DNA of 53,808 bases. Origin: a virus (taxonomy: Duplodnaviria > Caudoviricetes). Every line of letters begins with the position of its first letter. Within the stretch, counting starts at the first letter, position 1. Where the stretch lies: IMG/VR virus record IMGVR_UViG_3300020294_000007, positions 1-53,808 of that record, one strand, 5' to 3'. Position numbers and translations under genes: made by a program. Shown piece after piece: positions 22,373-45,921 of the stretch. Below the pieces are notes generated by a model. That model made no database searches, had not been told where the DNA came from, and saw only the letters and a list, made by a program, of their open reading frames with translations.

Positions 22373-22633
22373 TTAGAAATCATCGTCCAGACTAACCTCT
22401 GTATCTTTCTCAGCAAGTTCTTCCTGCCAAGGTTTATCCTCTTCAGACTTATCTTCTTCAAACTTACCCCCTCTCAAATGCTTCTCGATAGCGGATATGT
22501 CAAACCTATAAGTTAAGTCTGCTTTTATGTAACAATCTCTAGCAATAGTACCTTTCTTAACCCAGAGTCTTACAGTAGATTCTGAGATACCAAAATACTT
22601 TGCTACTTCTTGCACGTTTGAATAACTAGCCAT
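22373..22633 (-). CDS. Excisionase/MerR-like HTH DNA-binding protein
   Basis: NVQEVAKYFGISESTVRLWVKKG...YRF motif. Confidence 0.8.
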   Translation of the reverse strand: MASYSNVQEVAKYFGISESTVRLWVKKGTIARDCYIKADLTYRFDISAIEKHLRGGKFEEDKSEEDKPWQEELAEKDTEVSLDDDF

Positions 22634-28973: not shown

Positions 28974-29293
28974 GGGGCAGGGCAACAAGCATGGCATGTT
29001 CCGAGCATCTGATGGAGCCGCCCTATTACTAAAGCGGCATACCCCCATTCAAAACCTCACTAGGGAAAATCCCTAGTTTCAATGTGGTGGTTGGTAATAT
29101 TAAGCCTCCATGAATAGGGAAAACTTGCAAAAACCCTTCGCCCGCGACTTGGCATACTACCTTTGGCTTCGAGGCCACCACTCCCCGAAAAGGATCAGCG
29201 GGCGAGATGTGGTGAATGTGTTGATGCGCTTAATACTTCAGGGGGGACGCATCAACACTCGCAGACTTCACCAAGCCTGTTCAACATGCCCCC
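28974..29293 (-). ncRNA. Candidate ~320-nt structured non-coding RNA
   Basis: Intergenic; 5' and 3' ends pair; several 8-11 bp internal stems, a GUAA-capped hairpin, and G-U pairs that form on the - strand. Confidence 0.55.
29060..29076. repeat. Dyad copy 1 CTAGGGA-AAA-TCCCTAG
   Basis: Read directly from sequence. Confidence 0.95.
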
Positions 29294-29521
29294 CTAGGGA
29301 CTAACAATATAAAATAAATTGTTTGTTAATTTATAACCTAGTCCTTCTATCTTTTCACCCTCGTTGAGAGATAAGACAGAAATACTTTCTCGTATGTTCT
29401 TAGGTAGGGAATCGAATGATGGGTATTCTTTGGTAACCGTTGGATTACAATCTAGATTGTCAACAGTTATGCAATCCTTTTTCGGATCAGCGTATACACG
29501 ATAATAGGTAGACAAACCCAT
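29294..29521 (-). CDS. Hypothetical protein
   Basis: AGGAG RBS; resembles the C-terminal part of the 29582..30640 product. Confidence 0.7.
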   Translation of the reverse strand: MGLSTYYRVYADPKKDCITVDNLDCNPTVTKEYPSFDSLPKNIRESISVLSLNEGEKIEGLGYKLTNNLFYIVSP

Positions 29522-29581
29522 AGTAATATTCGTAACTCCTACGTAACGAAGTTAAACCCTATCACTATGGGTTGTGCTTGT

Positions 29582-30640
29582 CTAGTTATATAGGTAAAAA
29601 AGATGTGGATTTAATTTAAAGCCTGTACCGACTTGCCCTGCCTTTAGTTCTTGGTCAGACACCATTTGTAGTATCGACATTTTCTGCGCCAGTTCAGTAG
29701 GGAAGTTTTCTTCTCCGTACACAAGGTGTTTGTCTATCTCTGCGTAAGAGTAATCCTTTGACTGCGATACATCAGCAACGTGTAATCTAGTTTCGTTTTC
29801 GATGTATACAACAGTAAACTTATTGCCCGAAGCTATGCCTTTACGATCAGCTTCATAATCTGTCAACGCCTTGAAGTCCTTGTACCAAGCCTCGGTGACA
29901 GGCATATAGTATTTGCCGTCTATCTTCTCGATAGAACGCATACCATGCTCAAAGTCTATGTGCTTCTGGATATCACGTTTTAGTCTACCTACTTGATCGT
30001 TATGCTCGTATTTAAACGAGTCTGCTTCTGATGATGCACTTCGGAAAGTATGGGCCACTACTTTTTCAAACGTATTTGGTACAACCCTTCTGCGTAGAGT
30101 ATGAAGTATCTTACTCTCATCCATAGTCTTGAAAACATGTACGTTATGAGGGGCACGTTCCTTCTGTATGTTCGGAGTGTATAAGCCAAGGTATTGTTTA
30201 TCGGAATCTAAATGTCTTGCTATCTCTAAACGTGCAGATGCGTAGGGGCCACTAAAGTGTATAAGCATAGCCGACATATTTTTACTCATACTCACTGTTG
30301 CATCCGAGAACACAGGGTCTCTCAACACCTCAAAAACTAGTGCAGGTAATGGTACGTAAGAGGTCCAAGCATCAGATGTGGTTCTGGCTCCCTGTGCCTC
30401 TAGCCTCCAAGGATTAATATCCTCATTACGCCCGAGACGAGTTATACCATCACTACCTAAGGTCCAATCCCAGAATCGTTGAATCATAGCAGTCCAATTC
30501 GGTGCAGTCCTCGCATCTTCTGGAGTCATCGTAAAGCACTCATCATCTTTGGGTGAATACAAATCCCACATCCTATTGTTGTACTCGCAATATACTTTTT
30601 GCATTTTAGTCATCCTTACTAGTTTTAAATTTAGTGACAA
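29582..30640 (-). CDS. Hypothetical early protein
   Basis: 352-aa ORF; true start may be ATG 30613. Confidence 0.7.
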   Translation of the reverse strand: MSLNLKLVRMTKMQKVYCEYNNRMWDLYSPKDDECFTMTPEDARTAPNWTAMIQRFWDWTLGSDGITRLGRNEDINPWRLEAQGARTTSDAWTSYVPLPALVFEVLRDPVFSDATVSMSKNMSAMLIHFSGPYASARLEIARHLDSDKQYLGLYTPNIQKERAPHNVHVFKTMDESKILHTLRRRVVPNTFEKVVAHTFRSASSEADSFKYEHNDQVGRLKRDIQKHIDFEHGMRSIEKIDGKYYMPVTEAWYKDFKALTDYEADRKGIASGNKFTVVYIENETRLHVADVSQSKDYSYAEIDKHLVYGEENFPTELAQKMSILQMVSDQELKAGQVGTGFKLNPHLFYLYN

Positions 30641-30824
30641 TATTAAAAATTACAGTTGGCAACACTTCACATTCTGTTTCCCAATCCTTGTTATTAGTAG
30701 TGAACCAATCGCCATTATGATCTTTAACGTACATTAGTAGCCTCCCTCCCTTAGGGTCTTGAGCTTTAAAACCCTCGCCACCAAAGACATCTCCATAAGA
30801 AATAACGTCAATAGTTTTATTCAT
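30606..30824 (-). CDS. Hypothetical protein
   Basis: AGGAGG RBS. Confidence 0.7.
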   Translation of the reverse strand: MNKTIDVISYGDVFGGEGFKAQDPKGGRLLMYVKDHNGDWFTTNNKDWETECEVLPTVIFNIVTKFKTSKDD

Positions 30825-30876
30825 GCTACTTTTTCCTCCTTTATTGTGGGTTTAAGACGTACCTAAAACCCGTTAG

Positions 30877-30907
30877 TTCAAATACTAGTTAGGGAAATTC
30901 CCTAGTG
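30877..30907. repeat. Dyad copy 2 with extended arm TTCAAATACTAGTTAGGGAAATTCCCTAGTG
   Basis: Abuts the stop of 30908..32020. Confidence 0.95.
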
Positions 30908-32020
30908 TCATTTTGGTTTACCGACAACTTCCTCGACCAAGTAGTTGAGTCCAAGCCACTCGTTCATAAAACGATTGAACTGAGACCGTATCTTCTGCGC
31001 TTGCTTCTTGTCAGCATCGTAAGCCATGTTCTTCACTCTGCGTAACAAAGAGTTGCGCTCCATGAAAAAGTACAAGAGAGCCAGCCTATGTTCATTACTA
31101 GTATTAGTAACAACATCGGTAGCTTTTTCTTGATTGTATATGTGCAATGCCGAATCGAAGTGTCCATAAGCATCTCGCTCGCCTTTGATATACTCTTCGA
31201 GATCTGCCACGTACTCTCGACATACTTTCCAATCATCAGACACAAAGGGTGCGTAGGTCACTAGATACTGCCAGTAGTTTTCAATCGCATCTTTGTACTC
31301 TTTCTTCCTTTCAATGTTTGTGCGCTTGCGTGTCGCATACTCTGTTCCGCCCCCACTCACGTACTTGAGCGCATCGTACTCTTTCTGTGTCGGGCTACTA
31401 CCACTAGTTCTGGTACGCTCGAACACAAGCGTCATCGAATCTCTTGAACCCTTTGAGTGCTCTTTGGGTCTCGGTATATAGATAGACTCAAAGGGTTTCT
31501 TGTGAACAACATTGGGATAATCATCAGTTGCCACGCCCACATCTACGTACAGTTTGCCCTGTCGAGACTCGCTCACACGTAACGGATCAGGTACGCAAAA
31601 ACGTAGCGTAGCGGTTCGCCAGTTAACGTAATGCTCGACAGAGTGATAGCGAATACCTACCGATTCTACGTTACGCTCGGGATCATACCGCCAAACGATA
31701 GGAGCAAGGAACACCATGTCATCTATCATCTCTTTGGTAAAATCTAGTTCTGAAGTCCTATTCTCTGCTTCAGTGTGGAAGTACCCATGCGGATCGCCAA
31801 GCCCCCCATCAAGGAGCACGTAGGTGTTCTCGTCTACCTTGCGTACCTTGTGTACCTTGTTGCTACGGTTAAAGATAGGACGTATGTTTCTCGACTTACC
31901 AAGCCCACCTCTTTCATGGATTGGTTTGATCTGTTCATACATCTCTTGCATACCCGTGAATGAATTGAATTTTTGGCTTAGAGCATTGCTCGAAGTCCAT
32001 TGAAGTTCATGTGTTGCCAT
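30908..32020 (-). CDS. Hypothetical early protein
   Basis: 370-aa ORF, AAGGAG RBS. Confidence 0.75.
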   Translation of the reverse strand: MATHELQWTSSNALSQKFNSFTGMQEMYEQIKPIHERGGLGKSRNIRPIFNRSNKVHKVRKVDENTYVLLDGGLGDPHGYFHTEAENRTSELDFTKEMIDDMVFLAPIVWRYDPERNVESVGIRYHSVEHYVNWRTATLRFCVPDPLRVSESRQGKLYVDVGVATDDYPNVVHKKPFESIYIPRPKEHSKGSRDSMTLVFERTRTSGSSPTQKEYDALKYVSGGGTEYATRKRTNIERKKEYKDAIENYWQYLVTYAPFVSDDWKVCREYVADLEEYIKGERDAYGHFDSALHIYNQEKATDVVTNTSNEHRLALLYFFMERNSLLRRVKNMAYDADKKQAQKIRSQFNRFMNEWLGLNYLVEEVVGKPK

Positions 32021-32021
32021 A

Positions 32022-32186
32022 CTAGTTCTCCTTACAATCTAGTTTTAAGTTTTTGTAGTTAGGGTAGATGCCCTCGCATACGTCACGCTTGTACGCTTGT
32101 TCAGCTACCAATTCGTCTTGGTAGTCCATGTTGTTGACAATAAGAAATGCCACCAGAACCCCCAAAAATATAATCAACTTGTCCAC
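32022..32186 (-). CDS. 54-aa membrane-anchored protein (MDKLIIFLGVLVAFLIV...)
   Basis: Not in the track; GGAGG RBS, GTG start, N-terminal TM segment, two Cys. Confidence 0.65.
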   Translation of the reverse strand: MDKLIIFLGVLVAFLIVNNMDYQDELVAEQAYKRDVCEGIYPNYKNLKLDCKEN

Positions 32187-32212
32187 CCTACATCCTCCGT
32201 TGTTTAGTGTGT

Positions 32213-32241
32213 TTCAAATACTAGTTAGGGAATTTCCCTAG
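32213..32241. repeat. Dyad copy 3 with extended arm
   Basis: TTCAAATACTAGTTAGGGAATTTCCCTAG; contains the TAG stop of 32238..33458. Confidence 0.95.
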
Positions 32242-33458
32242 TCGTCAATGTAAACCGACTTACCGATTGTGGGTCTGGCACTCGGGTTACCTGCGATACA
32301 CCACAACACAGGGCAGTCCCAGTTCCCCCAGCCACCGTACAGTTCACCGTCCGTCAGGACCGCACAAGCTGTAGGTCTGATACCGTTCGCTTGTAGGTAA
32401 GTGGGCACACAACGTACATCAGTACCACCCGCACCTTTGGGCTTGATCTGTTGCATTACCAGATCTACATTGTCTAGCTCGTCCTGCAAGAATGTCTGAT
32501 GTCCTGCGACCTCGGTGTCCCACCACACAATGTGTAGTTTTGTCGGGCGTAGTGTCATCAGTATCTTCTTGAACTCACTGAGCCATTGACCTAGTAAGTG
32601 ATAGCACGACCCAGACATGTCAGGAGCCAAGACTAGTTCGTCTAACCTCTCGCTCAGACTGGTCGGCATGTACACACCTTGACCCAAGTGTCTGCGATTG
32701 GGCTTGGCCCAAGTACAGAAGTCTTTACCCGCCATCACTTGTCGCGTCCAGTCCTGCGCTACCTTCTCCCACGGAACCTTGGGTGTAACTAGTTCCTGTA
32801 GTGATCGGTTAGTCTGAAGGCCCAGTTTTCCTGCGGTCATCATACCCTGCCGTACCGCACTCTCTAGCTCGCGTGCGATCTCTTCCTGCTCCACAGAATC
32901 TAGTTCTTGAGCGCCTTCGTGGTCGTGGTCATCGAAACCCTCTCCGAAACCCTCGCCTTCTTCTTGTCGCTTGCGTATGTCCCAGAAGATCTTGGGTATG
33001 TCCCAGCCCTTGTACTGCGGATCTGCGTAGCCGCCTTCGGGCATGACTGCAAACCCATCGGGCCACCGCATACGTGCATTGGCTACGTTAGCCATGATCC
33101 ACTCGTTCTCTGCGATAAGCTGTAGATTGATCCAATGGTCACTAGCAATACCTGCCGCCTTTGCATCCATTTTGAATAGATAATCTAGTAGGAATAAGTG
33201 CTTACCTAGCTTGTGATAGTTCTCATGCAGTATCAGGAATCGATACTCTGCGTCACTCATTGCTGAGATAAACTCCTCACCGTAGACAACATCTCTACCA
33301 TTGGTACACGCGGTAAAGGGCAATGGCTCGGGGACCACAGAACTAGTCCCCAACATCAGCACACCTGCTAGTGGTACATAGATATCTACACTAGTGATAT
33401 CACTCACGCATTTCTGTAGGCGTTGGCCTACTGTTAGTTGTTGATTAAGACTCAGCAT
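32238..33458 (-). CDS. Metallopeptidase-VWA protein (DUF2201-like)
   Basis: TACTNG, LHENYH (HExxH), MIDAS DMSGS...GGTD...LTDG. Confidence 0.85.
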   Translation of the reverse strand: MLSLNQQLTVGQRLQKCVSDITSVDIYVPLAGVLMLGTSSVVPEPLPFTACTNGRDVVYGEEFISAMSDAEYRFLILHENYHKLGKHLFLLDYLFKMDAKAAGIASDHWINLQLIAENEWIMANVANARMRWPDGFAVMPEGGYADPQYKGWDIPKIFWDIRKRQEEGEGFGEGFDDHDHEGAQELDSVEQEEIARELESAVRQGMMTAGKLGLQTNRSLQELVTPKVPWEKVAQDWTRQVMAGKDFCTWAKPNRRHLGQGVYMPTSLSERLDELVLAPDMSGSCYHLLGQWLSEFKKILMTLRPTKLHIVWWDTEVAGHQTFLQDELDNVDLVMQQIKPKGAGGTDVRCVPTYLQANGIRPTACAVLTDGELYGGWGNWDCPVLWCIAGNPSARPTIGKSVYIDD

Positions 33459-33587
33459 CTAGTTAACCTCCTCTGGATCTTCATCTACCGAAAAATGAAT
33501 TTTTATGGTTTCTACCTCGTCTTCAAGTCCGATCCAATCGTCACTTGGACAAGTGTTCATCCACTCCCAAAATTCTGATCTTGTCAT
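33459..33587 (-). CDS. 42-aa acidic protein (MTRSEFWEWMNTCP...)
   Basis: Not in the track; GAGG RBS, fills the gap between the AAA and VWA genes. Confidence 0.6.
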   Translation of the reverse strand: MTRSEFWEWMNTCPSDDWIGLEDEVETIKIHFSVDEDPEEVN

Positions 33588-33591
33588 CTAG

Positions 33592-34686
33592 TTAGCCTCG
33601 CTTGTCTGCTGTAAACATGTGTTTGTGTTGATCTGCGAACTCCATGAACTTGGCGTTGTTCATCACCACCGCTTGCTTCGGGTGCTTGGGTGAACGTATG
33701 CCGTTCAGGAAGTACGACTTAGCTTCTTCGGGTAGCCGCCATGAGTAGGCCACCCACGCATCGACCCAATCACGCTCGATGTTCTGCAACGTGCGATAGA
33801 CCGTCATCAGTGTGGCACTCGCGCCTGTCGGAATACGTGCTGTAGTGGGTGAGTCCTTGATGTCCTTGATAGACGGAAGGTCACTCATCAACTTGCTGTA
33901 GTTGAATAGCTCCGAGCCACCCATCGGGCCAAGCGTACCGACCAATGCCGCCTCCATAGACTGTGAATCTAGTTGGTCAGCTTTGTGCATCCAGTGGGAT
34001 GCGAACTCAAGAGAACGTGGTGTGACGAACGCATCTTGTTGTCGCTCTGGATGGTAGATGTACTGGTTGTCATCAGGTGATACGTCCTCGAAAGATTGGA
34101 ATAGCTGTGGGTTCTCCGCAACCCAAGAAGATACTGCGTAGTGAATCCCTGCGCCCTGCGCCCACTCTACCCACTCGATGTGCGTTGGTTTGCGTAGTCG
34201 TATTCGGGTCATCCTGTTGCGTTGATGCGGTAGCAATACATCACCTAGTCCCTCACCATCTAGGTTCGATGTGAGAAACACGATAGAGTCAGGGTGTAGC
34301 TCCTTGTCTCCGATCTTGTGTTCGTAAACTAGTCTTAGCAATGCGTTCTTGACTGACACGTTAGACTTCTTGTACTCGTCAACCATGATAACCAACGGCT
34401 TCTCCAAGTGAATGCCAAGCTCTGCGTTAGTCGCACAAGTGAAGTAGTCTTGTCCGTCTACCTCCTTGAACTTGGGTATCCAGATGTCGCCAACGTCCTT
34501 GGTCGTGCAATCGAAGTAGCACATAACGTGCGTATCCTTCAGTGTCTCACCTAGTGTGTCTAACAGAGCCGACTTGCCTGTGCCCATGTCGCCCTCTACC
34601 ATCACACTACCTTGTCTACCAAAGGCCAATATCATCTTAGCCGCTTGGTCGTGACTTACTGCATAAGTTCTTTGTTGTACCTGCAT
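33592..34686 (-). CDS. MoxR-like AAA+ ATPase
   Basis: Walker A GDMGTGKS, Walker B IMVDE, TSN, NR, TPRS motifs; next to the VWA gene. Confidence 0.85.
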   Translation of the reverse strand: MQVQQRTYAVSHDQAAKMILAFGRQGSVMVEGDMGTGKSALLDTLGETLKDTHVMCYFDCTTKDVGDIWIPKFKEVDGQDYFTCATNAELGIHLEKPLVIMVDEYKKSNVSVKNALLRLVYEHKIGDKELHPDSIVFLTSNLDGEGLGDVLLPHQRNRMTRIRLRKPTHIEWVEWAQGAGIHYAVSSWVAENPQLFQSFEDVSPDDNQYIYHPERQQDAFVTPRSLEFASHWMHKADQLDSQSMEAALVGTLGPMGGSELFNYSKLMSDLPSIKDIKDSPTTARIPTGASATLMTVYRTLQNIERDWVDAWVAYSWRLPEEAKSYFLNGIRSPKHPKQAVVMNNAKFMEFADQHKHMFTADKRG

Positions 34687-34703
34687 TTCTGTTCTCCTAA
34701 ATA

Positions 34704-34734
34704 TTCAAATACTAGTTAGGGAAATTCCCTAGTG
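34704..34734. repeat. Dyad copy 4 with extended arm
   Basis: 31 bp identical to copy 2; abuts the stop of 34735..35754. Confidence 0.95.
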
Positions 34735-35754
34735 TTATTGTGGAAGTACATTAAGTACTTTGTTTATAGCGTCAATTAGTTCGGAACGTAACCGACTGCT
34801 ATCTCGTAGCGCATCTACTGTCATGCGCTGTAATCTCTCTTCTAGTGCCGATCTGCATAGCTCTAAGTTCGGGTCATCACCGAAACTGAAGTGCTTGAGC
34901 ATCTGCACTACTTCTAGGGTCCTGTCGATCAAGGTATTGTGAAACCCTGTAGGTGTTTGTTTGTCCCCGTAATCTAGCTTGGACTTTGTTTCTGTAAGTC
35001 TAGTTCTCACATCAGAGTAAACACGTACCATCATGTCTCGGTTCTGATCGTGGTAGTAGTCCTTGTAGCTCTGCTTGAGATACTCTTTCATCTCTTCCCC
35101 GACTTGTAGCCGAAAGTCGCTGTCGTCCTCTGGCTTGGGTAGCGGTATGAACGCAAGCTTGAAACTGAACTTCTCTCGTAGCGATCCAAGACTAGGATAG
35201 TCATCTCGATTGAACAGTCTGCCCAGACCGCTGGACGATGACTGCGCTTTCTCTTCTGCCATGTCTACTGCGGCAGAGTAGCCGTCCAGTAGGTTCTGCA
35301 CCTCGGTGTAATACTCTGCCTTGAACGCCTCCAGTGCTTGTCTAGCATCTAGTAGTGACGTTGCGGGTATGATGCGCGGTCCACGATCTAGCCAAGGTTT
35401 AGAGACTCTGTTGAGATAATCTCTCGCATCGGACTTGATCGATTTGATGCGCTTGAGGTGTGGATTGTCTGACAGTAGGTACTTGTCAACACCGATCTTC
35501 CTCGCATCTGCATCTACTTGGTGGGCGTAGTTCTGTGTGGCTCGTTTGTCTTTCTTCCTGCCCTCCCACATGCAGATGTTTACGTGGCATAGCCGTGCAT
35601 GAGTGTGCATAGATACATCAACTAGTTCTGGCTCTTGTTGGTTGGTAGGTCGTGTTGGTTCTGGAACTGCCGTTACCTCGGCTTGTGCCTGTGGTACACT
35701 AACTACTGGTGCGCTTACATCGTGTTTCTTTTGTAGGTCATCTAGTAAACCCAT
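34735..35754 (-). CDS. Hypothetical early protein (possibly DUF3150-like)
   Basis: WEGRKKD, PW.D.G.RI, LFNRDDYPS...KF motifs. Confidence 0.6.
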   Translation of the reverse strand: MGLLDDLQKKHDVSAPVVSVPQAQAEVTAVPEPTRPTNQQEPELVDVSMHTHARLCHVNICMWEGRKKDKRATQNYAHQVDADARKIGVDKYLLSDNPHLKRIKSIKSDARDYLNRVSKPWLDRGPRIIPATSLLDARQALEAFKAEYYTEVQNLLDGYSAAVDMAEEKAQSSSSGLGRLFNRDDYPSLGSLREKFSFKLAFIPLPKPEDDSDFRLQVGEEMKEYLKQSYKDYYHDQNRDMMVRVYSDVRTRLTETKSKLDYGDKQTPTGFHNTLIDRTLEVVQMLKHFSFGDDPNLELCRSALEERLQRMTVDALRDSSRLRSELIDAINKVLNVLPQ

Positions 35755-35767
35755 AGTCGTTCTCCAT

Positions 35768-35803
35768 GTTGTCGCTAGGGAAATTCCCTAACTAGTTTTT
35801 GAA
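35768..35803. repeat. Dyad copy 5, extended arm in inverted orientation
   Basis: GTTGTCG-CTAGGGAAATTCCCTAACTAGTTTTTGAA. Confidence 0.95.
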
Positions 35804-35842
35804 ACAGTATTGTTTTTCAAGCGAAACTCCACTCGAAATACT

Positions 35843-35871
35843 ATTATCTCATATGTTAGTATTGAAGTCAA
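35843..35871 (-). promoter_or_regulatory. Sigma70-like early promoter
   Basis: - strand TTGACT-N17-GATAAT with a TG extension. Confidence 0.6.
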
Positions 35872-35904
35872 ACCTTTAACTTGAGTGGGTAAACGTGCTT
35901 GAAC

Positions 35905-36282
35905 GTATAATGTTCTTAGTAAACGTCTATTGTTCTTACAATGTAGTGACCTAACTAATTGATAAAAAAGGAATGTTCTAATGTTCGGTTTTTGACGAAG
36001 AGAAGAGAGAGAAAATGTGAAACTAGATTTGAGTAGAAAATAGAACAATAGGAAGAGAGGTCTGAAGTAAGTATCCTCTCTTTTTTAAAAAGCGAACATT
36101 ATAAATTAAGATTATTAGTTTATATATATATAAGTACATTTAATAAAGTTTAATTAATAAGAATACTAACACTTGATAACGCTTGGGTAGGTTTACAATG
36201 TTCGTTTTTCATTTTCAAAAAGCGAACAATGCAGTATTTTAGCGAACATTAGGGGGATTTTGCGAACATTACACCGAACATT
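35905..36282. other. Putative replication origin (iterons plus AT-rich core)
   Basis: About 11 GAACA(T/A)T motifs in both orientations around a very AT-rich stretch at 36100-36170. Confidence 0.55.
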
Positions 36283-36283
36283 A

Positions 36284-36300
36284 CTAGGGAGATTCCCTAG
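36284..36300. repeat. Dyad copy 6 CTAGGGA-GAT-TCCCTAG
   Basis: Read directly from sequence. Confidence 0.95.
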
Positions 36301-36306
36301 TTGCGT

Positions 36307-36461
36307 CTTGAAGCTATGTGCATCTACGATCACTGGTTTCATTTTGAAGGCTAGGGAGATTCCCTAACTAGTTCTTGAGATGGTGGGGATAGTTTGAAGG
36401 CTACCAAGTTTTTGGTAGGAGGAAGACTTGAAGCTATGTGCATCTACGATCACTGGTTTCA
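36307..36461. repeat. 35-bp exact direct repeat x2
   Basis: CTTGAAGCTATGTGCATCTACGATCACTGGTTTCA at 36307-36341 and 36427-36461. Confidence 0.95.
36351..36378. repeat. Dyad copy 7 with inverted extended arm
   Basis: CTAGGGAGATTCCCTAACTAGTTCTTGA. Confidence 0.95.
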
Positions 36462-36477
36462 AAGGGGCCGTAGCCCC
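36461..36477 (-). terminator. Hairpin with C(UACG)G loop after the 36484 gene
   Basis: - strand GGGGC-TACG-GCCCC-TTT. Confidence 0.55.
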
Positions 36478-36483
36478 ATGAAA

Positions 36484-36729
36484 CTAACCATCGTTTTCTG
36501 TGATGTTTGGGAGATCGAAGTTAAAACTCTCTTGCCCAGATGGGAGACTAACTACTCGGGTTCCCTGTATTGCAAACTCCTCTAATCTTTCCAGTAGATC
36601 TTTCCGTTGTTGTTTTGTTATTCCGACTCGTTCTCTTGCAATCAACGTATAGAGTATTGATGTAGGAACAGCGGTGTAACCAATGTAACCGTGATAGGTT
36701 TTGAATTGAAATGTTGTTTGGTCATTCAT
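36484..36729 (-). CDS. Hypothetical protein
   Basis: GAGGA RBS. Confidence 0.7.
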   Translation of the reverse strand: MNDQTTFQFKTYHGYIGYTAVPTSILYTLIARERVGITKQQRKDLLERLEEFAIQGTRVVSLPSGQESFNFDLPNITENDG

Positions 36730-36745
36730 TTTTAGATCCTCTAAT

Positions 36746-36773
36746 AAAAAAAGAAGGGACCCCGTAGGGTCCC
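36746..36773 (-). terminator. Intrinsic terminator
   Basis: - strand GGGACCC-TACG-GGGTCCC-TTCTTTTTTT. Confidence 0.8.
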
Positions 36774-36782
36774 AAGATGTGA

Positions 36783-36799
36783 CTAGGGAAATTCCCTAG
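36783..36799. repeat. Dyad copy 8 CTAGGGA-AAT-TCCCTAG
   Basis: Lies 4 nt after the stop of the 36804 gene. Confidence 0.95.
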
Positions 36800-36803
36800 C
36801 AAG

Positions 36804-37436
36804 TTACTCAGAGATCAGAGTCTTTGTTTTCTCTAACTCTTTAGCAAGTTGCATGCCCACGTTGAGCCAATCGCGTAGTTCACTGTTCTGATCCGCGCAT
36901 AGGCTCTCAGCATACTTGAACTTATTGCTAGTTTGCGCCGCCTTTCTAGCCTTTTCCGCCTCGGCTATAGCCTTGAGCAATCGCTCATGTGGTGGATTGG
37001 CTACTCGCGCGCCGCCCTGCTTGATTGACTCGGCTTTGTTAAACCTAGTCTTCATAGCATTACGGAAGTCTTTCATGGCGGTCCCTTTCTGATCCTGCCA
37101 GTACTTGCAATTAGCTTTGGTAAAGGCCAGTTTGCCTTCGCCTTCACCGTTTAGCCTAGGATCGTCTTGCTTAAGGTAGGCCATAATGAAACCCTCTTTC
37201 GGGAATTTCTGTTTACAGATAGTATCCTTAAGCCTGCCTAGAAAGGCCTCAGACAAGATCGCGTCTTTGCCTTTGTTCTTGGCGGTGCTGACTAGTAGAT
37301 CCTCTAGTCCTGCTCCCATGTCTACTAACTGCTGATATAGCTGATCCGCTACTTCGCTAGCCTTCGCGCCGAACTCAGTGAATTGGCGGGTGAGTGACAA
37401 GAACAAGTCTTGTCCTTTCTTTGTAAATGAACTCAT
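36804..37436 (-). CDS. First gene of the early arm, hypothetical protein
   Basis: Start moved to ATG 37436 (MSSFTKK) with an AAGGA RBS; has its own promoter and terminator. Confidence 0.7.
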   Translation of the reverse strand: MSSFTKKGQDLFLSLTRQFTEFGAKASEVADQLYQQLVDMGAGLEDLLVSTAKNKGKDAILSEAFLGRLKDTICKQKFPKEGFIMAYLKQDDPRLNGEGEGKLAFTKANCKYWQDQKGTAMKDFRNAMKTRFNKAESIKQGGARVANPPHERLLKAIAEAEKARKAAQTSNKFKYAESLCADQNSELRDWLNVGMQLAKELEKTKTLISE

Positions 37437-37490
37437 AATGAGTATCCTTTGTTGGTTTACTGCCTCGGCCCCTTGCCGAAACATGACTAA

Positions 37491-37518
37491 ACTTTAGCAT
37501 ACTTTTCGGATCTCGCAA
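37491..37518 (-). promoter_or_regulatory. Sigma70-like promoter (extended -10)
   Basis: TTGCGA-N16-TAAAGT with TGn before the -10. Confidence 0.5.
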
Positions 37519-37535
37519 TACAATGCTTCCCTTGA

Positions 37536-37559
37536 CTAGGGAATTTCCCTAGCGACAAC
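37536..37559. repeat. Dyad copy 9 CTAGGGA-ATT-TCCCTAG plus CGACAAC
   Basis: Shares a 23-bp inverted identity with copy 5. Confidence 0.95.
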
Positions 37560-37705
37560 CCTACCCACCCCCTATGCCCCCAATTCCAAGATTAGTTACA
37601 TACCAACTTATATATTACTAATCTGCACGAACGATCTGTAAAATTTTGAGTTTTGCTATACCCCCTCTCTTCTGAGCGCACCCCCCTTGTTTATTTAAGT
37701 CCCCC

Positions 37706-37764: not shown

Positions 37765-38346
37765 ATGGCGTTACACATAAAACCCGAGTCTGGGGTAGAA
37801 GTGGCTGAATCCGATCCCGTTGTTGATTTGAAAGACAGGGCAGAGGCCGCATCCAACACAATCGAGAAGCTTGCCGAACACGGTTTAGAGATAACCCCTA
37901 ACAAAGAAGATAAGGACAACGCTGCAAAACTAGTTGCTGCATATGCAGAAGATCCTGAAGGTACGTCTAAGAAAGTGACCACCAAGAAAGCAGCCACCCT
38001 TACCCCCGCTTCTTTGCTACTCACGGACAACATACTTAGAGAGTTTGGGCAGTCCGTTGTAGAAAGTTCCTTACATATCAGACACTTAGTAACCAACAAA
38101 CTAGTGCTGGAGTCTGAGAACCCTGACCCCCGTATACGTATGAGGGCTTTGGAACTACTGGGTAAGATATCAGATGTGGGTCTCTTCTCTGAGAAATCAG
38201 AGGTGACGATTACGCATCAGTCTACGGATGACCTGCGTGAGAAGCTGAAAGGTAAGCTGGAAAAGCTTGTTGCAGGAGAAGTGGTGGAAGCACCCGTCAT
38301 TGTAAATGTGAAGGAGGAACTAGGGCTGGAAGACTACGATGACTGA
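37765..38346 (+). CDS. terS: Probable terminase small subunit
   Basis: Directly upstream of and overlapping terL; RMRALELLGKISDVGLF motif. Confidence 0.65.
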   Translation: MALHIKPESGVEVAESDPVVDLKDRAEAASNTIEKLAEHGLEITPNKEDKDNAAKLVAAYAEDPEGTSKKVTTKKAATLTPASLLLTDNILREFGQSVVESSLHIRHLVTNKLVLESENPDPRIRMRALELLGKISDVGLFSEKSEVTITHQSTDDLREKLKGKLEKLVAGEVVEAPVIVNVKEELGLEDYDD

Positions 38347-39889
38347 GGCCGCGTTAGACTTCTCCGAGGAAGATATCCAGAAGATGCTGGACAACATTGA
38401 CTCTTTCTCCCCTGACGAAGTAGTAGAGATAGACCGTATTGTGGACGAGTTAGCCTCTCGGAAACAAAACGAATTGGCCTACAATGATTTGATAGAGTTC
38501 TGCAAGCGTATGCAGCCAGATTACATTGTAGGCAAACACCACCGCATACTATCAAAGATGCTCATGGACATTGAGCAGGGCAACAAAGACCGAATATGCG
38601 TCAACATACCGCCAAGACACGGCAAGTCTCAGTTAGTATCTATTTACTTCCCAGCGTGGTTTTTGGGTAGGAACCCGAATAAGAAAGTAATGATGGTGTC
38701 GCACACGACTGATCTGGCGGTGGACTTTGGTAGAAAGGTACGGAACCTGATTGCTACGGATGAGTACAAGAGTATTTTTCCTACGGTTGCACTATCAATA
38801 GATTCTAAGTCGGCAGGTAGATGGAATACAAACGTGGGCGGTGAATATTACGCCTGTGGTATTGGCTCGTCTATCGCAGGTAGAGGTGCAGACTTACTGT
38901 TGGTGGACGACCCTCACTCTGAGCAGGATGTGATTAACGGTAACTTTGAGGTATTTGAGAAAGCCTACGAGTGGTTCACCTTTGGAGCACGGACTCGTCT
39001 GATGCCGGGTGGTCGTGTGGCAATCATACAGACTAGATGGCATATGGATGACCTGACGGGCAGAGTAACACGGGACATGGTGAACAATGATCGCTCTGAC
39101 CAATATGAAGTGGTGGAGTTCCCTGCTATATTAGATACGGCAGATAAAGATAACAAACCTATACAGAAACCCCTGTGGCCTGAGTTTTTTGACTTAGATG
39201 CGTTACTACGTACCAAGGCATCTATGCCGACCTTCCAATGGAACGCACAGTACCAGCAGGAACCTACCGCAGAAGAAGCGGCTTTGGTCAAACGAGAGTG
39301 GTGGCAGTCATGGGAGCAGGAACGGCCTCCTGAATGCGAGTACATTATTATGTCACTGGACGCAGCAGCAGAAACGCACAACCGTGCTGACTATACTGCG
39401 CTGACTACGTGGGGGGTATTTTTTAATGAGAGTGAAAATGCGTACCACATCATCCTGCTGAATAGTATAAAGAAGCGTCTGGAGTTTCCTGAACTGAAAG
39501 ACTTGGCGATGGAGGAGTATAATGACTGGGAGCCTGACTCGTTTATCGTGGAGAAGAAGAGCGCAGGGACAGCCCTGTACCAAGAGATGAGACGCATGGG
39601 ACTGCCCGTGCAGGAGTACACGCCACACAGGGGGTCGGGGGACAAGTTAGCGCGATTGAATTCAGTTGCAGATATCGTAGCATCAGGTATGGTGTGGATG
39701 CCGATAACTAGGTGGGCAGAAGAAGTAATAGAAGAGATTGCAGGGTTTCCATTTATGAGCCATGATGACCTCGTGGACAGCACGGTTATGGCGTTGATGA
39801 GATTCAGACAAGGTGGGTTTATCCGTCTACCAACGGATGAGCCAGAAGAAACACGCTACTTCAAACAAAGGCGGGGTGGATACTACTAA
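38339..39889 (+). CDS. terL: Terminase large subunit
   Basis: PPRHGKS Walker A, LLLVDDPH Walker B, QTRWH..DL, YQQEP, nuclease SLD and HDDLVDS motifs. Confidence 0.95.
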   Translation: MTEAALDFSEEDIQKMLDNIDSFSPDEVVEIDRIVDELASRKQNELAYNDLIEFCKRMQPDYIVGKHHRILSKMLMDIEQGNKDRICVNIPPRHGKSQLVSIYFPAWFLGRNPNKKVMMVSHTTDLAVDFGRKVRNLIATDEYKSIFPTVALSIDSKSAGRWNTNVGGEYYACGIGSSIAGRGADLLLVDDPHSEQDVINGNFEVFEKAYEWFTFGARTRLMPGGRVAIIQTRWHMDDLTGRVTRDMVNNDRSDQYEVVEFPAILDTADKDNKPIQKPLWPEFFDLDALLRTKASMPTFQWNAQYQQEPTAEEAALVKREWWQSWEQERPPECEYIIMSLDAAAETHNRADYTALTTWGVFFNESENAYHIILLNSIKKRLEFPELKDLAMEEYNDWEPDSFIVEKKSAGTALYQEMRRMGLPVQEYTPHRGSGDKLARLNSVADIVASGMVWMPITRWAEEVIEEIAGFPFMSHDDLVDSTVMALMRFRQGGFIRLPTDEPEETRYFKQRRGGYY

Positions 39890-42312
39890 TGGCTATTGAA
39901 AAAGGATTATATGCGGCACCGGAAGGACTCGAAGAAGAACAGGGTGAAGGACTAGAAATAGAGATAGTTGACCCTGAAATGGTGACGCTGGATGACGGCA
40001 GTATGGAGATAACCATAGTACCTGATGCCAATATAGGGGACATGACCGACTTTGATGCGAACTTGGCAGAGTTTTTAGAAGACAATGCACTGTCTTTGAT
40101 CGCAGATGATGTCATGGGGCTGGTTGCATCGGACATGGATGCACGAAAAGAGTGGGCAGACACCTTCGTAGAGGGGCTTGACCTGCTTGGCCTCAAGATA
40201 GAGGAACGATCTGAACCATTTCAGAGCGCATGTGGTGTATTTTCTACCGTTTTATCCGAAGCTGCCATACGTTTTCAGGCAGAAACCATGAGTGAAACCT
40301 TTCCTGCGGCTGGCCCTGTGCGAACAAAGGTCATAGGAGAGGAAGATAAGGACAAATTAGAGGCAGCAGACCGTGTAAAAGCGGATATGAACTACGAATT
40401 GACCGAAAAAATGGTCGAATATAGGTCAGAACACGAAAGATTGCTCTATAGTTTGGGTTTAGCAGGGTCTGCGTTCAAAAAAGTCTACTTTGACCCCAAT
40501 TTAGGGCGACAAGTTGCTATGTATATACCCGCAGAAGACGTAATTGTGCCCTACGGAGCGTCAAACATAGAAACCGCAGAGCGTGTGACCCACATAATGC
40601 GGAAAACTAAGAACGAATTGCGTAAATTACAGGCCAGTGGCTTCTATAAGGATGTAGAACTGGGAGATCCCATCCCTTATCACTCTGATATAGAGGAGAG
40701 AAAGGCAAAAGACAGTGGATACTCTATGTCTGATGACGATAGGTACGCAGTCTATGAGATACATGCTGATATGGTCATAGATGGTATAGACGATGAGGAC
40801 GATATCGCTAAACCTTACGTAGTGACCATAGAAAGAGGCAACAATGCGGTGCTTGCCATCAGAAGGAATTGGAATCCTGATGACCCACTCCAGTTAAAGC
40901 GCCAACACTTCGTACATTACGTATATGTCCCCGGATTTGGCTTCTATGGCCTTGGGCTTATACATATCGTAGGGGGGTACGCTAAAGCAGGTACGTCCAT
41001 TATACGACAGTTGGTGGACGCAGGTACGCTTGCTAACTTACCAGCAGGGTTGAAGACTCGTGGGCTACGTGTCACAGGAGATGACACCCCGATAGAACCG
41101 GGGGAGTTTAAGGACGTAGATGTACCGTCTGGTAGCATCAAAGATAACATTATGCCGCTGCCCTACAAGGAACCTAGCCAAACATTACTAGCCTTACTAG
41201 ATAAAATAACTAACGAGGGCCGTAGATTAGGGGCGATTAGTGACATGAATATTTCTGATATGTCAGCTAATGCACCCGTAGGTACTACCTTGGCGTTATT
41301 AGAAAGAACTCTGAAGCCTATGGCGGCAGTTCAGTCTCGTGTTCACTACGCCATGAAACAAGAGTTTAAACTACTGAAAGCAATCATGTCTCAGTACGCC
41401 CCTGCGGAATACGGGTATCAACCTAACCGTGGAGAGGTAAGCGCCAGAGAAGCAGATTACATGTTGGTGGATGTTATACCCGTCAGTGACCCCAATAGTT
41501 CTACAATGGCGCAAAGAGTCGTTCAATACCAAGCAGTATTACAGATGGCACAATCTGCCCCACAGATATATAATCTTCCGCAGCTACACAGGCAGATGAT
41601 AGAAGTTTTAGGTATAAAGAACGCAGATAAACTTGTTCCGATAGAGGATGATGCTAAACCTACTGATCCTATTAGTGAGAATATGAACGCACTTATGGGT
41701 AAACCATTAAAAGCTTTTATATATCAAGACCACGCGGCACATATTGCAGCTCATGAAGCGTTTATGAAAGATCCTATGATTGCCCAAGCCATAGGCAAAA
41801 ATCCACAGGCCCAGCGAATCATGGCAGGATTACAGGCGCACATAGCAGAACATTATGCGTTCTTGTATAGACAACAGATAGAGAAGCGGTTGGGAGCTTC
41901 GTTACCCGCACCTAATTCTGAACTTCCTGAGAATTTAGAAGTCGCATTGTCAAGTCTAGTTGCTAAGGCAGCAGAACAAGTTACTCAAGGCAATCAGCAG
42001 AAAGCGGCACAGATGGAAGCGCAACAGAAAGCGCAAGATCCGGTTGTTCAGATGAAGCAAGCAGAGTTGCAGCTTGAAGCTCAGAAGGTACAGCAGAAAG
42101 GCGATAAGGATGCTGCAGAGCTTGGGTTAAAAGAACGAGAGCAGACACGCAAAGAGAAGAAGGATGCGGCAGATCTGGCTATGGACAATCAAGAATTAGC
42201 GTTAGAGATTGATAAAGCAAAGGTAGATATGACCCTAGACATACAAGAAGCACAGCGAAATGTTAACGATAGTATTACGGATATAGTTAACAGAGGGGCT
42301 GATAGAGAATAA
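39889..42312 (+). CDS. Portal protein
   Basis: 807 aa after terL; GSAFKKVYFD, GFGFYGLGL; Gln-rich coiled-coil C-terminus. Confidence 0.85.
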   Translation: MAIEKGLYAAPEGLEEEQGEGLEIEIVDPEMVTLDDGSMEITIVPDANIGDMTDFDANLAEFLEDNALSLIADDVMGLVASDMDARKEWADTFVEGLDLLGLKIEERSEPFQSACGVFSTVLSEAAIRFQAETMSETFPAAGPVRTKVIGEEDKDKLEAADRVKADMNYELTEKMVEYRSEHERLLYSLGLAGSAFKKVYFDPNLGRQVAMYIPAEDVIVPYGASNIETAERVTHIMRKTKNELRKLQASGFYKDVELGDPIPYHSDIEERKAKDSGYSMSDDDRYAVYEIHADMVIDGIDDEDDIAKPYVVTIERGNNAVLAIRRNWNPDDPLQLKRQHFVHYVYVPGFGFYGLGLIHIVGGYAKAGTSIIRQLVDAGTLANLPAGLKTRGLRVTGDDTPIEPGEFKDVDVPSGSIKDNIMPLPYKEPSQTLLALLDKITNEGRRLGAISDMNISDMSANAPVGTTLALLERTLKPMAAVQSRVHYAMKQEFKLLKAIMSQYAPAEYGYQPNRGEVSAREADYMLVDVIPVSDPNSSTMAQRVVQYQAVLQMAQSAPQIYNLPQLHRQMIEVLGIKNADKLVPIEDDAKPTDPISENMNALMGKPLKAFIYQDHAAHIAAHEAFMKDPMIAQAIGKNPQAQRIMAGLQAHIAEHYAFLYRQQIEKRLGASLPAPNSELPENLEVALSSLVAKAAEQVTQGNQQKAAQMEAQQKAQDPVVQMKQAELQLEAQKVQQKGDKDAAELGLKEREQTRKEKKDAADLAMDNQELALEIDKAKVDMTLDIQEAQRNVNDSITDIVNRGADRE

Positions 42313-42509
42313 TGGCAGATAACATATTTACTGTACTAAATAAAAAGTTTGTAGAAGATAGAGCTTCTGCTATAGAATCTCTTACATCTGGAGCAGCCAA
42401 AGACTTTGCCCAGTACAAAGAGACAACAGGTTACATTCGAGGTCTGGAAACCTGTATGCGAACTGTGAATGACCTCTCGCGCAACTACATGGACGGTGAT
42501 GATGAGTGA
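42312..42509 (+). CDS. Hypothetical protein
   Basis: Coupled ORF; Y...GYIRGL. Confidence 0.7.
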   Translation: MADNIFTVLNKKFVEDRASAIESLTSGAAKDFAQYKETTGYIRGLETCMRTVNDLSRNYMDGDDE

Positions 42510-42873
42510 AGCTGAAAATATAAGTGAAGAACAGTTAGAAGCAATGATCCCCTTGCCTGTGGGCTATAGAGTGCTTATAGCACTGCCGCAGGTAGAAGAG
42601 ACGTTTGACGGTACCGAACTTCTTAAATCGTCACAGACGAGGAATGAAGAACACGTTATGTCAATAATAGGGTTAGTCGTAGACATGGGCGAACAAGCGT
42701 ATGCCGATAAAGAACGTTTTCCTACGGGTGCATGGTGCAAACAAGGCGATTATGTCATGTTTCGCGCTAATTCAGGCACACGTTTTAGGATAGGTAATAC
42801 TGAATATCGTCTTATGAACGATGACTCTATAGAAGCTGTCGTACCTGACCCAACTGGAATATCACGAGTATAA
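42502..42873 (+). CDS. groES: GroES/Cpn10-like co-chaperonin
   Basis: PVGYRVLI, G.VVDMG, WCKQGDYVMF...G, EYRLMNDDSIEAVV. Confidence 0.8.
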   Translation: MSEAENISEEQLEAMIPLPVGYRVLIALPQVEETFDGTELLKSSQTRNEEHVMSIIGLVVDMGEQAYADKERFPTGAWCKQGDYVMFRANSGTRFRIGNTEYRLMNDDSIEAVVPDPTGISRV

Positions 42874-42882
42874 GGACTTATT

Positions 42883-43941
42883 ATGCCATTTCAAAAAGTA
42901 GAATTTGAGTTTCCTGATCCCGATGCTGTCGAAGAGGATACAGAAATAGAAATAGAACCTTCTAGTGAGATAGAGGTAGAAATACCGGGCAAAGAAAAGC
43001 CTGTTGTTGAGGAAGCGGTTGAACCTGAACCCGAACTCGAACCTGAATTGGAGATAGTTGATGACGTACCTAAAAAGGACAGGAATCGTACTCCGTCTGA
43101 ACCACCTGAAGATGTCACTGAAGAAGAGTTGGAAAACTATTCAGACAAAGTTCGTAACAGGATACGACACTTTAGTAAAGGGTATCACGATGAACGGAGG
43201 GCTAAAGAAACTGCTGAAAGGCAAACTCAAGAGTTGGAAAGTCTGGCTCAAAGACTCTTGGATGAAAATAAAGAGTTAAAAGGTAACCTGTCGAAAAACA
43301 AAGACGTTCTTTATAAACAAGCAGAACGAGCCGTAGAGAGTGATTTAGCTAACGCCACCAGAGAATACAAAGCAGCATACGAAGAAGGCGATGCAGATAA
43401 ACTGCTAAAAGCACAACAAGCTCTTACGAAAGCGGAAATAGCTTCTCAAAGATTATCTAAATTAAGTAGTGAAGAGGCTTTACAACCTAATCAAAATACA
43501 TTACAAACTAGTCCTGAGAATGTAAAAGATTTATTGCCTGAATCTGCAAAAGTACAAGTTGACCCAAGGGCACTTGACTGGCAACAAAAAAACAAATGGT
43601 TCGGTAGTTTAGAACATGAACCAGAAACTGCTTTTGCTTTAGGGCTACACAAACAAATCACTGAGGTGGAAAAAGTATCTGCTGAAAGCGATGAATACTA
43701 TGAGAAGTTATCTTCTCGTATGCAAGCAAAGTTTCCCGAACTATTCGAGGGGACCAATGAACAGGAGGTAAGTACACCTAAATCAAAACCAGCTAATGTG
43801 GTTGCCCCCGCAACGCGGAGCACAGCACCTAAAAAAATTAGGTTAACGCAAACACAAGTGGCTTTGGCAAAAAGATTGGGGCTTACTCCCGCACAGTACG
43901 CCAAACAGGTTGCATTAGATATGAGGAACAATAATGGCTGA
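42883..43941 (+). CDS. Capsid scaffolding protein (probable)
   Basis: Acidic N-terminus, coiled coil, basic C-terminal helix pair LT..QVALAKRLGLT..QYA; upstream of the capsid gene. Confidence 0.7.
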   Translation: MPFQKVEFEFPDPDAVEEDTEIEIEPSSEIEVEIPGKEKPVVEEAVEPEPELEPELEIVDDVPKKDRNRTPSEPPEDVTEEELENYSDKVRNRIRHFSKGYHDERRAKETAERQTQELESLAQRLLDENKELKGNLSKNKDVLYKQAERAVESDLANATREYKAAYEEGDADKLLKAQQALTKAEIASQRLSKLSSEEALQPNQNTLQTSPENVKDLLPESAKVQVDPRALDWQQKNKWFGSLEHEPETAFALGLHKQITEVEKVSAESDEYYEKLSSRMQAKFPELFEGTNEQEVSTPKSKPANVVAPATRSTAPKKIRLTQTQVALAKRLGLTPAQYAKQVALDMRNNNG

Positions 43942-44383
43942 GAACAGATTAGATCGTCAGTTAGAAACAAGGGAAAAAACAACCAGAACGAGGCATTGGC
44001 AGCGACCAGAAGTTTTACCTTCTCCCACGCCTGAAGATGGTTATGTTTTCCGTTGGATACGAGTAGCATCTCGTGGTACAACTGATGCCACAAATGTTTC
44101 CTCTAAATTACGAGAAGGTTGGGAACCAGTAAAAGCGGCAGATCATCCAGAAATTACATTAGTCAGCGTAGAGAACGAACGGTTCTCCGACAATATAGTG
44201 ATGGGCGGTTTAATGCTTTGCAAGGCTCCAGAAGAGATGATAGAGGAGCGTAGTGAATATTACGAAACTCAAACTAAATCTCAGATGCAGTCCGTGGATA
44301 ACAACCTCATGAGAGAAAGTGACGCTCGTATGCCTATCTTTAATGAGAGGAAAACGAAAGTTACTTTTGGAAACGGAACTTAA
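43934..44383 (+). CDS. Conserved head-module protein
   Basis: GYVFRWIR, REGWEPV, GGLMLCK motifs. Confidence 0.7.
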   Translation: MAENRLDRQLETREKTTRTRHWQRPEVLPSPTPEDGYVFRWIRVASRGTTDATNVSSKLREGWEPVKAADHPEITLVSVENERFSDNIVMGGLMLCKAPEEMIEERSEYYETQTKSQMQSVDNNLMRESDARMPIFNERKTKVTFGNGT

Positions 44384-44402
44384 TTATAGGAGTGTATAAG
44401 CG

Positions 44403-45917: not shown

Positions 45918-45921
45918 TATT

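Follow-up and report, generated by a model that had tools for sequence, protein, structure and literature searches.

Early promoters of phage N4 are hairpins with a 5–7 bp stem and a 3-nt loop that lie in the early region. The RNase III sites of the T7 early region are structured and conserved, and punctuate a host-transcribed polycistronic operon at its gene junctions. In SPbeta, a repeated site of the phage genome (SPBRE) is reportedly bound by the master repressor MrpR/YopR. In the sections of PMC6550527 that deal with them, the stoperators of Cluster A mycobacteriophages (L5, Bxb1) are multi-copy sites that lie mostly off promoters and block elongation, with a consensus that differs by lineage and co-varies with the repressor; PMC9283540 is a further paper on these sites. 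The PeSL elements of T4-type phages, as far as the relevant text of PMC2839356 goes, are ~100 bp long and have, from stem-loop to Shine–Dalgarno sequence (SD), a complete sigma70 promoter as well as an AT-rich tract. The part of PMC12266134 on D29 Gp36 describes a phage protein that represses genes downstream of intergenic repeats, in that case direct repeats. Here we analysed a window of 53,808 nt, the whole of the IMG/VR record IMGVR_UViG_3300020294_000007 (Caudoviricetes; CheckV completeness 88%), whose early region carries nine copies of a short inverted repeat, hereafter the dyad. These dyads are real, selected, positionally conserved and confined to the early block, and they are swapped for a different dyad in each lineage.

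The dyad in the window and its close relatives

An exact motif scan identified nine matches to TAGGGANNNTCCCTA in the window versus 0.01 expected by chance. This bore out the nine copies, their positions (Table 1) and their centres (AAA once, AAT four times, ATT twice and GAT twice on the + strand), all of which a first-pass annotation had listed from the letters alone. None of 100 shuffled sequences attained nine matches, the reversed pattern gave none in the window and the next-best dyad of the window has two copies only. When two mismatches were tolerated a single extra site appeared (37886; chance expectation 2.03). The true form of the dyad is 7+1+7, (C/T)TAGGGAA-W-TTCCCTA(G/A), containing the pattern TAGGGA-N3-TCCCTA. 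Palindromy reaches the single central base (AGGGAA-N-TTCCCT) in 6/9 copies, and the extension CTAGGG...CCCTAG is present in 4/9.

All nine copies fall between 29061 and 37551, i.e. in the upstream 8.5 kb of a minus-strand early block that runs from ~37640 down to 17987. In order, this block comprises gene 1, an 81-aa gene, a 690-nt non-coding gap, DUF3150, an AAA ATPase, DUF2201/vWFA and several orphans, followed from ~28500 downstream by nucleases, DNA polymerase, helicase, a Gp2.5-like single-stranded DNA-binding protein (SSB) and primase-helicase. Structural, packaging and lysis genes occupy the + strand at 1–17838 and 37765–53320 (TerL, 38339–39889; portal, 39889–42312). Restriction to the early region, as first proposed, was upheld: no copies occur in the late or replication genes of the window or of two complete relatives, and in the latter 10/10 copies lie in one 8.5-kb block and 7/7 in one 6.8-kb block. 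Promoter-like sites are overlapped by 0/9 dyads, and two dyads lie ~+45 to +55 downstream of one. Two of the three placements described earlier were likewise recovered, with four copies (2, 6, 7 and 8) on a stop codon or 3–5 nt past it and one (copy 5, 35776) between a sigma70-like promoter and the GGAG/ATG of the DUF3150 gene. Copy 5 also overlaps the stop of a doubtful TTG-start open reading frame (ORF) in the origin-like gap.

Selection was apparent in an alignment of the window with five close relatives (clade A, six sequences, ~87–94% DNA identity). The dyad arms were variable at 0/126 columns versus 129/1748 intergenic columns (7.4%; Fisher P = 1.6e-4), with third codon positions variable at 21%. 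The central base flips between A and T at 2/9 sites, and the flanks 1–6 nt from the dyad were variable at 16/108 columns, twice the intergenic rate (P = 0.009). A strain variant found in an RNA-library contig showed 11 changes over 151 nt, each of them in the flanks or the centre of the 29061 copy; its arms are kept and the outer C..G pair has become T..A. One relative, L020, is without the 36784 copy through a clean 23-nt indel. This is the only one of the larger clade-A indels to touch a dyad, the others lying 49 to >1100 nt off.

Positions are kept at much greater distance, where the arms themselves differ. Clade B (L018 and four other loci) has the same gene order, and its orthologous proteins are 23–73% identical to those of the window (40% for the DUF3150 protein). 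It carries seven copies of TTAGGGAC-S-GTCCCTAA, with no others in the whole 33.8-kb record, and 7/7 are syntenic with window copies. This included the gene-1 leader, two places in the non-coding gap, the sites before DUF3150 and at its stop, and those after the 370/415-aa and 75/76-aa genes. The change of arm from clade A to clade B is symmetric in both arms at positions 0 and 7 (outermost and innermost), the innermost pair going from A/T to C/G. Conservation of position in relatives was a prediction on which the first-pass annotation had staked the element, and the dyad positions are indeed kept.

Turnover across the family and the origin-like region

We further investigated 71 IMG/VR loci of 20 kb, fetched with the vWFA protein (30–65% identity) and sharing the DUF3150/AAA-ATPase/vWFA module. 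An exact 6+6 dyad of the locus's own occurred in at least three copies in 41/71 loci and in at least five copies in 28/71; many of the 30 dyad-negative loci are cut off upstream of the vWFA gene, and the true family fraction may differ from 41/71. About 17 arm types were found in all across the dyad-bearing loci. This included TAGGGA, CCCGTC, TTAGTC, TTATGC, TTAGTG, TAGTCG, GATGACA and CGGACA, as well as GTGTCA, CTCTTAT, TCGACA, GCGACA, CTTACAT, TCTGTAA, AGTTAC and others.

The places occupied by these different arms were alike. Across 156 copies from 24 loci, an SD with a start codon followed within 45 nt in 68 cases, compared to 104/960 random positions in the same blocks, and the distance from dyad end to start codon had its mode at 18–30 nt. 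Upstream, 64/156 copies had an ORF of at least 50 codons ending within 25 nt, versus 89/960 random positions. The junction that precedes the ATPase gene gave 30 distinct inverted repeats in 61 loci, ~25 of them, by reading, members of the recurrent family of the locus itself; by our estimate rather than by computation, ~1/5 of such 100-nt windows contain an arm-6 repeat by chance. A 17-mer motif scan of IMG/VR returned 15 loci, four on the contigs of two close relatives and the others single matches. The same 17-mer in 596 Gb of bacterial genomes occurred at 46 loci, each single-copy and none related to the window. Relatives among cultured phages were not found by megablast of the region or tblastn of two early proteins. 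A scan of genome contigs with the DUF3150 alignment gave no relative either.

Two of the dyads fall within the non-coding gap, which has the look of a replication origin. All six exact AATGTTCG words of the window are found in 35980–36282 (303 nt), beside an AT-rich core. Two identical 34-nt direct repeats (36307–36340 and 36427–36460), which begin GAAACCAGT, are interleaved with copies 3 and 4. Long stretches of this region are nearly identical between clade A (35790–36480) and clade B (L018, 9085–9770), despite the 23–73% identity of their proteins. Again by reading, many lineages have a dyad directly next to the iteron array and a second one beside a conserved ACCAGT box, which suggests that the reader of the dyads is active at the border of the presumed origin as well.

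Table 1 Dyad copies, neighbouring signals and their clade B counterparts (positions in the window; counterparts in locus L018)
Feature	Position	Strand	Setting	Clade B
Dyad copy 1	37537..37551	.	Leader of first early gene (ATG 37436), ~54 nt downstream of the inferred early start; centre flips A/T among close relatives	7735, syntenic
Dyad copy 2	36784..36798	.	5 nt past gene 1 stop, 10 nt before intrinsic terminator; missing from L020 (clean 23-nt indel)	no counterpart
Dyad copy 3	36352..36366	.	Origin-like gap; one imperfect arm (GAT centre on +)	9185
Dyad copy 4	36285..36299	.	Directly adjoins the AATGTTCG iteron array	9255; flank orientation opposite to neighbouring copy
Dyad copy 5	35776..35790	.	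DUF3150 5' untranslated region, 21 nt before ATG, ~46 nt past sigma70-like promoter	9834; downstream of TTGACC-17-TATAAT
Dyad copy 6	34717..34731	.	3 nt past DUF3150 stop, 30 nt before ATPase ATG; then ACTAGTATTTGAA	10988; overlaps stop
Dyad copy 7	32226..32240	.	Its own TAG is the vWFA stop codon; then ACTAGTATTTGAA	no counterpart
Dyad copy 8	30890..30904	.	3 nt past stop of 370-aa gene; then ACTAGTATTTGAA	14709
Dyad copy 9 (last)	29061..29075	.	396-nt gap before nuclease/replication genes; inner pair imperfect	16220
Candidate early promoter TTACAG-18-TAATAT	37612..37641	-	Inferred by reading from block AGATTAGTAATATA	block common to clades A and B
Sigma70-like promoter TTGACT-17-GATAAT, with TG	35843..35871	-	Upstream of DUF3150 gene; 10/12 matches	TTGACC-17-TATAAT at the equivalent place
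Intrinsic terminator GGGACCC-tac-GGGGTCCC + T-run	36746..36773	-	After gene 1	
Gene 1	36804..37436	-	210 aa, all-helical, no known family; putative partner by position	
Origin-like non-coding region	35790..36480	.	AATGTTCG iterons, AT-rich core, two 34-nt direct repeats	

The candidate early promoter in Table 1 has a poor -35 and was not among the promoter-scan matches; the start codon of gene 1 was placed by homologues. Intrinsic terminators were rejected as an explanation of the dyads, as the matches of a lax scan come from ACTAGTATTT-type tails and the true terminator is separate, after the 36784 copy. The T-rich tail of three window copies is missing in clade B, where the copies are followed by ACTTCAAAA.

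Other features of the locus were also recorded. A 224-nt segment (30617–30841) with a 72-aa ORF (30606–30824) is present in the window and not in L019 or L020, and begins 49 nt downstream of the 30890 dyad. Indels are concentrated among close relatives at the ATPase/vWFA junction (33463–33592), a hot spot with gaps of 409 and 538 alignment columns and no dyad. A small predicted membrane ORF of clade B (L018, 8553–8835) is bracketed by a ~50-nt duplication with a GGACCCCA-gcaa-TGGGGTCC hairpin and a ribosome-binding site, and on reading has the appearance of a cassette inserted at another hairpin. The vWFA gene (32238–33458), paired with the AAA ATPase (33592–34686), has its nearest cultured homologues in N4-like phages (~25–28% identity); the N4 equivalent of the pair is gp24/gp25, and no DUF3150 gene was seen in the part of N4 examined. 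On the + strand, after the tail genes, an ORF of 2,383 aa (10687–17838) resembles PLxRFG/DarB-like antirestriction proteins in its last third, the matches belonging to ~60-kb cultured phages such as Parlo, SopranoGao and Itty13 (20–25% identity).

Candidate readers of the dyads

Operators of a dimeric regulator were one of three alternatives put forward by the first-pass annotation, the others being N4-like hairpins and binding sites for an ejected protein on the DNA that is injected first. This idea is the best supported of the three, with the amendment that the dyads are not classical operators, lying as they do off promoters. Our tentative preference, held with less than even confidence, is that the dyads are sites of a fast co-evolving, symmetric phage DNA-binding protein that acts within the early transcription unit in a stoperator-like manner. 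A phage-encoded, sequence-specific factor, whose specificity shifts by lineage, would recognise the nine dyads in cis. As a dimer it would recognise duplex DNA, one half-site per arm, and tolerate some variation in half-site spacing. Once bound, it would form a roadblock to elongating host RNA polymerase, by which early transcription could be shut off or partitioned, and it may also shield the origin region. We infer all three of its components, namely binding by a phage protein, binding to duplex rather than to a hairpin, and an effect on elongation.

Location of the sites off promoters, in leaders, stop–SD junctions and iteron flanks, points to action on polymerase in the course of elongation. 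Variants at fixed arm positions go uncompensated, which favours duplex half-sites. At the variable arm position of the GTGKCA..TGMCAC family, 49 copies have T:A, one has G:C and 17 are mispaired (G.A 9, T.C 8), and in the AGTWAC..GTWACT family 14 copies are paired and 18 mispaired at the variable position, counts that are not independent events, as copies within one genome share descent. Among copies with a single arm mismatch, 9 were of G.U type, 11 of A.C type and 29 of other types, with no RNA-strand bias. Arm position 7 changed symmetrically between clades A and B and yet is unpairable in a hairpin with a 1-nt centre, which supports half-sites. A host factor is unlikely, because the 17-mer is single-copy in bacterial genomes and at unrelated loci. 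The purifying selection on the arms, their concerted change at syntenic places, the turnover across the family and the confinement to one block also speak for such sites, and stoperators set a precedent. Structure alone is insufficient, because copies within a genome stay identical and change together.

Several observations weigh against a duplex-binding dimer. Even in a single genome, identical arms can be separated by gaps of different length (L040, N2 ×7 and N3 ×2; L047, N1 ×8 and N2 ×1; L060, N3 ×4 and N4 ×2), and among lineages the gap ranges over 0–7 nt; a loop accommodates this readily, a rigid dimer less so. At inner flank positions 1–3 there were 50 G.T versus 32 A.C combinations, compared to 48 versus 93 at outer positions 6–8, a weak hint of pairing on the coding strand. 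The tight 18–30 nt spacing before start codons would be explained more directly by a role at the RNA level. No binding protein was identified among the candidates examined. Neither a repressor nor an integrase was seen among the window ORFs scanned, and the stoperator parallel is therefore functional only.

Much of this would sit well with the dyads being stem-loops, either in polycistronic early mRNA or in extruded or single-stranded DNA, that are read by a lineage-specific phage factor or serve as processing, stability or translation signals immediately 5' of each SD. We consider this rather unlikely, though a serious contender. Every copy would be transcribed if the early block is one unit, and RNA folds of the window copies gave -7 to -12.8 kcal/mol. 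An SD and start codon accompany the dyads far above the random level (68/156 versus 104/960), again with a mode of 18–30 nt. A loop could vary in length between identical arms, and several families have free, non-symmetric centres. The enrichment of G.T over A.C at inner relative to outer flank positions fits as well, and in three lineages the dyad lies in the first codons of a zinc-ribbon gene. However, variants at fixed arm positions lack compensation: 17 variants are mispaired versus 1 compensated in one family and 18/32 are mispaired in the other, with no G.U bias within arms. Structure alone also leaves the 0/126 arm changes and the identical shift of seven syntenic sites unexplained, complementarity often reaches the lone central base, where pairing is impossible, and the window stems are merely 6–8 bp. 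Two metatranscriptome runs contained 5–7% of the words and yielded 10 short contig pieces on the region, too sparse for RNA ends and uninformative wherever cover is lacking.

An improbable elaboration of the stem-loop idea is a private 'punctuation code' for each lineage, in which a fast-evolving phage factor, e.g. an endoribonuclease or RNA-binding protein, reads the hairpin at each early junction. Cas6/Csy4 offer a comparison for a site-specific endoribonuclease acting on hairpins. Under such a code the early mRNA would be cut or marked just upstream of the SDs, and the origin-flanking signal would tie mRNA fate to origin activity.

The remaining explanations fared worse. Selfish or neutral palindromic repeats (REP/MITE-like), homogenised by recombination and with no trans factor, are very unlikely: the clean 23-nt presence/absence difference, the variable adjacent flanks (16/108 versus 7.4% of intergenic columns, P = 0.009) and the extra bases that two flanking copies have in common within a genome would suit them, but not the synteny of 7/7 clade B sites at 23–73% protein identity, the invariant arms or the confinement to one block in complete genomes. 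Neither a transposase-like gene among the window ORFs scanned nor a multi-copy occurrence in bacterial genomes was seen. Copies of host REP/REPIN elements were rejected too, with 46 single-match loci in 596 Gb and none of them window-related. To PeSL-like composite terminator/promoter cassettes, acting mainly as recombination points that shuffle early genes, we assign a still smaller probability. The dyads are intergenic, repeated and early-only, one copy is present or absent between close relatives, and three window copies have a possible ATGACA/TTGACG-18/19-TAGTAT promoter around the dyad. However, most copies have only 5–20 nt between dyad and SD, the 18–30 nt mode before start codons leaves no room for a promoter, and the larger clade-A indels avoid dyads, the 23-nt loss being the sole exception. 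A sigma70 promoter with the dyad in its 18–19 bp spacer and TAGTAT as -10 was itself tried and rejected; it fits the three window copies, but L020 has lost TAGTAT, clade B is without it, and the arrangement also fails wherever the SD begins 5–15 nt past the dyad.

Least credible of all are N4-type promoters, i.e. extruded hairpins (stem of 7 bp, loop of 3 nt) that a virion-packaged RNA polymerase would read, which the first-pass annotation had also entertained. The stem and loop geometry in the window fits the description of N4 promoters, the nearest cultured homologues of the ATPase-paired vWFA protein are in N4-like phages, and a 2,383-aa protein is encoded beside the tail genes. Nevertheless, that giant protein has PLxRFG/DarB-like matches only, with no PDB sequence match and no Pfam family, and no PHROG or Pfam RNA-polymerase match was found among the window ORFs scanned. 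PF00940 was absent from all five records searched (the window and four relatives, three of them at least 93% complete), an absence that is unproven as the control genomes likewise gave no match. Furthermore, a conserved sigma70-type promoter precedes the DUF3150 dyad in each of the two clades, the dyad gaps of relatives span 0–7 nt, and the first 22 kb of phage N4 itself has no recurrent dyad.

Returning to the favoured DNA-binding protein, its identity was sought among early and neighbouring genes. Two candidates had been nominated from the first reading. One, the product of gene 1, gave no DNA-binding signal in the computed searches. Pfam and Foldseek of its AlphaFold2 (AF2) model (predicted local distance difference test score, pLDDT, 70) returned neither family nor fold match, and its Atlas look-alikes were unnamed viral clusters only, with named ones at chance level. 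The gene 1 family is small (10 representatives), two more IMG/VR scans with its alignments added no new lineage, and the first early genes of different groups have no detectable homology (hhalign probability 0.4%). The other, the helix-turn-helix (HTH) protein at 22373–22633, did not behave as a partner should, its recognition helix being nearly constant across the TAGGGA, CCCGTC, TTATGC and GATGACA lineages. This HTH_17 protein is present in eight loci; it and its homologues in the other seven have an acidic tail ending in a D-[FLY] motif, similar to SSB-type interaction tails.

Candidates chosen by position or distribution gave a similar outcome. The DUF3150 gene has dyads on both sides in clades A and B; its protein returned nothing below E = 0.089 in a PDB profile search, and Foldseek of its AF2 model (pLDDT 80) gave helical bundles only, with a best E of 0.13. 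A ~300-aa protein (fam 0) has neither a PDB nor a Pfam match. A C4 zinc-ribbon family (CxxC...LGY..C..CGE...PMHKSNY...LNPKRTT) occurs in 37 loci, and a dyad lies within the first codons of its gene in L029 (2327–2533), L039 (2464–2697) and L040 (3654–3881). It was rejected as the partner, being absent from the window, clade B and five other dyad-bearing loci in searches whose positive controls hit. Almost no Pfam match was obtained for 119 small early ORFs from nine lineages, and no family stood out when ORF clusters were profiled against dyad presence, a comparison in which many dyad-negative loci are truncated upstream. The partner may be located outside the 20-kb loci compared.

Comparison with known systems

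An open-access keyword search of the literature found no description of this phage family or of lineage-specific early-junction dyads. New here are the small size of the site, a turnover that spans the family while positions stay fixed, and the link with the origin. Should a single co-evolving factor read the dyads, they would constitute a natural series of ~17 orthogonal site/factor pairs that serve one function at matching genomic positions. This would provide a system for the evolution of nucleic-acid recognition specificity and perhaps a supply of orthogonal regulatory parts. Multi-site control from within a transcription unit would also be extended beyond temperate actinobacteriophages, to apparently lytic marine phages. 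Given that the early-block proteins are almost wholly unannotated, knowing the partner would assign at least one large orphan family a function.

Compared to the RNase III sites of T7, which are long double-stranded RNA cut by a host enzyme, the dyads have stems of 6–8 bp in the window and a lineage-specific, strictly conserved sequence. With N4 they have in common the small hairpin geometry of the early region, and their genome has the AAA-ATPase/vWFA pair. Unlike in N4, dyads are also found after genes, host-type promoters lie upstream and no phage RNA polymerase was seen among the ORFs scanned. SPBRE is likewise a repeated site with one regulator, but in a temperate Bacillus prophage; the likeness is one of arrangement. 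PeSLs resemble the dyads as repeated intergenic stem-loops between early genes and near the next SD (relevant parts of PMC2839356 and PMC4122927). In those same parts they differ in being ~100 bp long, with a full sigma70 promoter, a stem-loop that is a terminator and a role as gene-shuffling break-points, none of which the dyads share.

Stoperators, within the account given in the relevant sections of PMC6550527, resemble the dyads in that one short site recurs many times in transcribed DNA, for the most part away from promoters. There they are asymmetric, oriented with transcription, spread genome-wide in 20–30 copies and bound by the immunity repressor of a temperate phage. In contrast, the dyads are symmetric with an A/T-flipping centre, and their 7–10 copies are confined to one early block of 7–8.5 kb, in the window 8.5 kb of 53.8 kb. 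A cognate repressor is a feature of stoperators, whereas neither a repressor nor an integrase was seen here among the window ORFs scanned. Although the asymmetry, the orientation and the spread over the whole genome that help to define it are not found here, the Cluster A stoperator network is the nearest known system in function, and in the dyads, as in stoperators, the consensus shifts by lineage.

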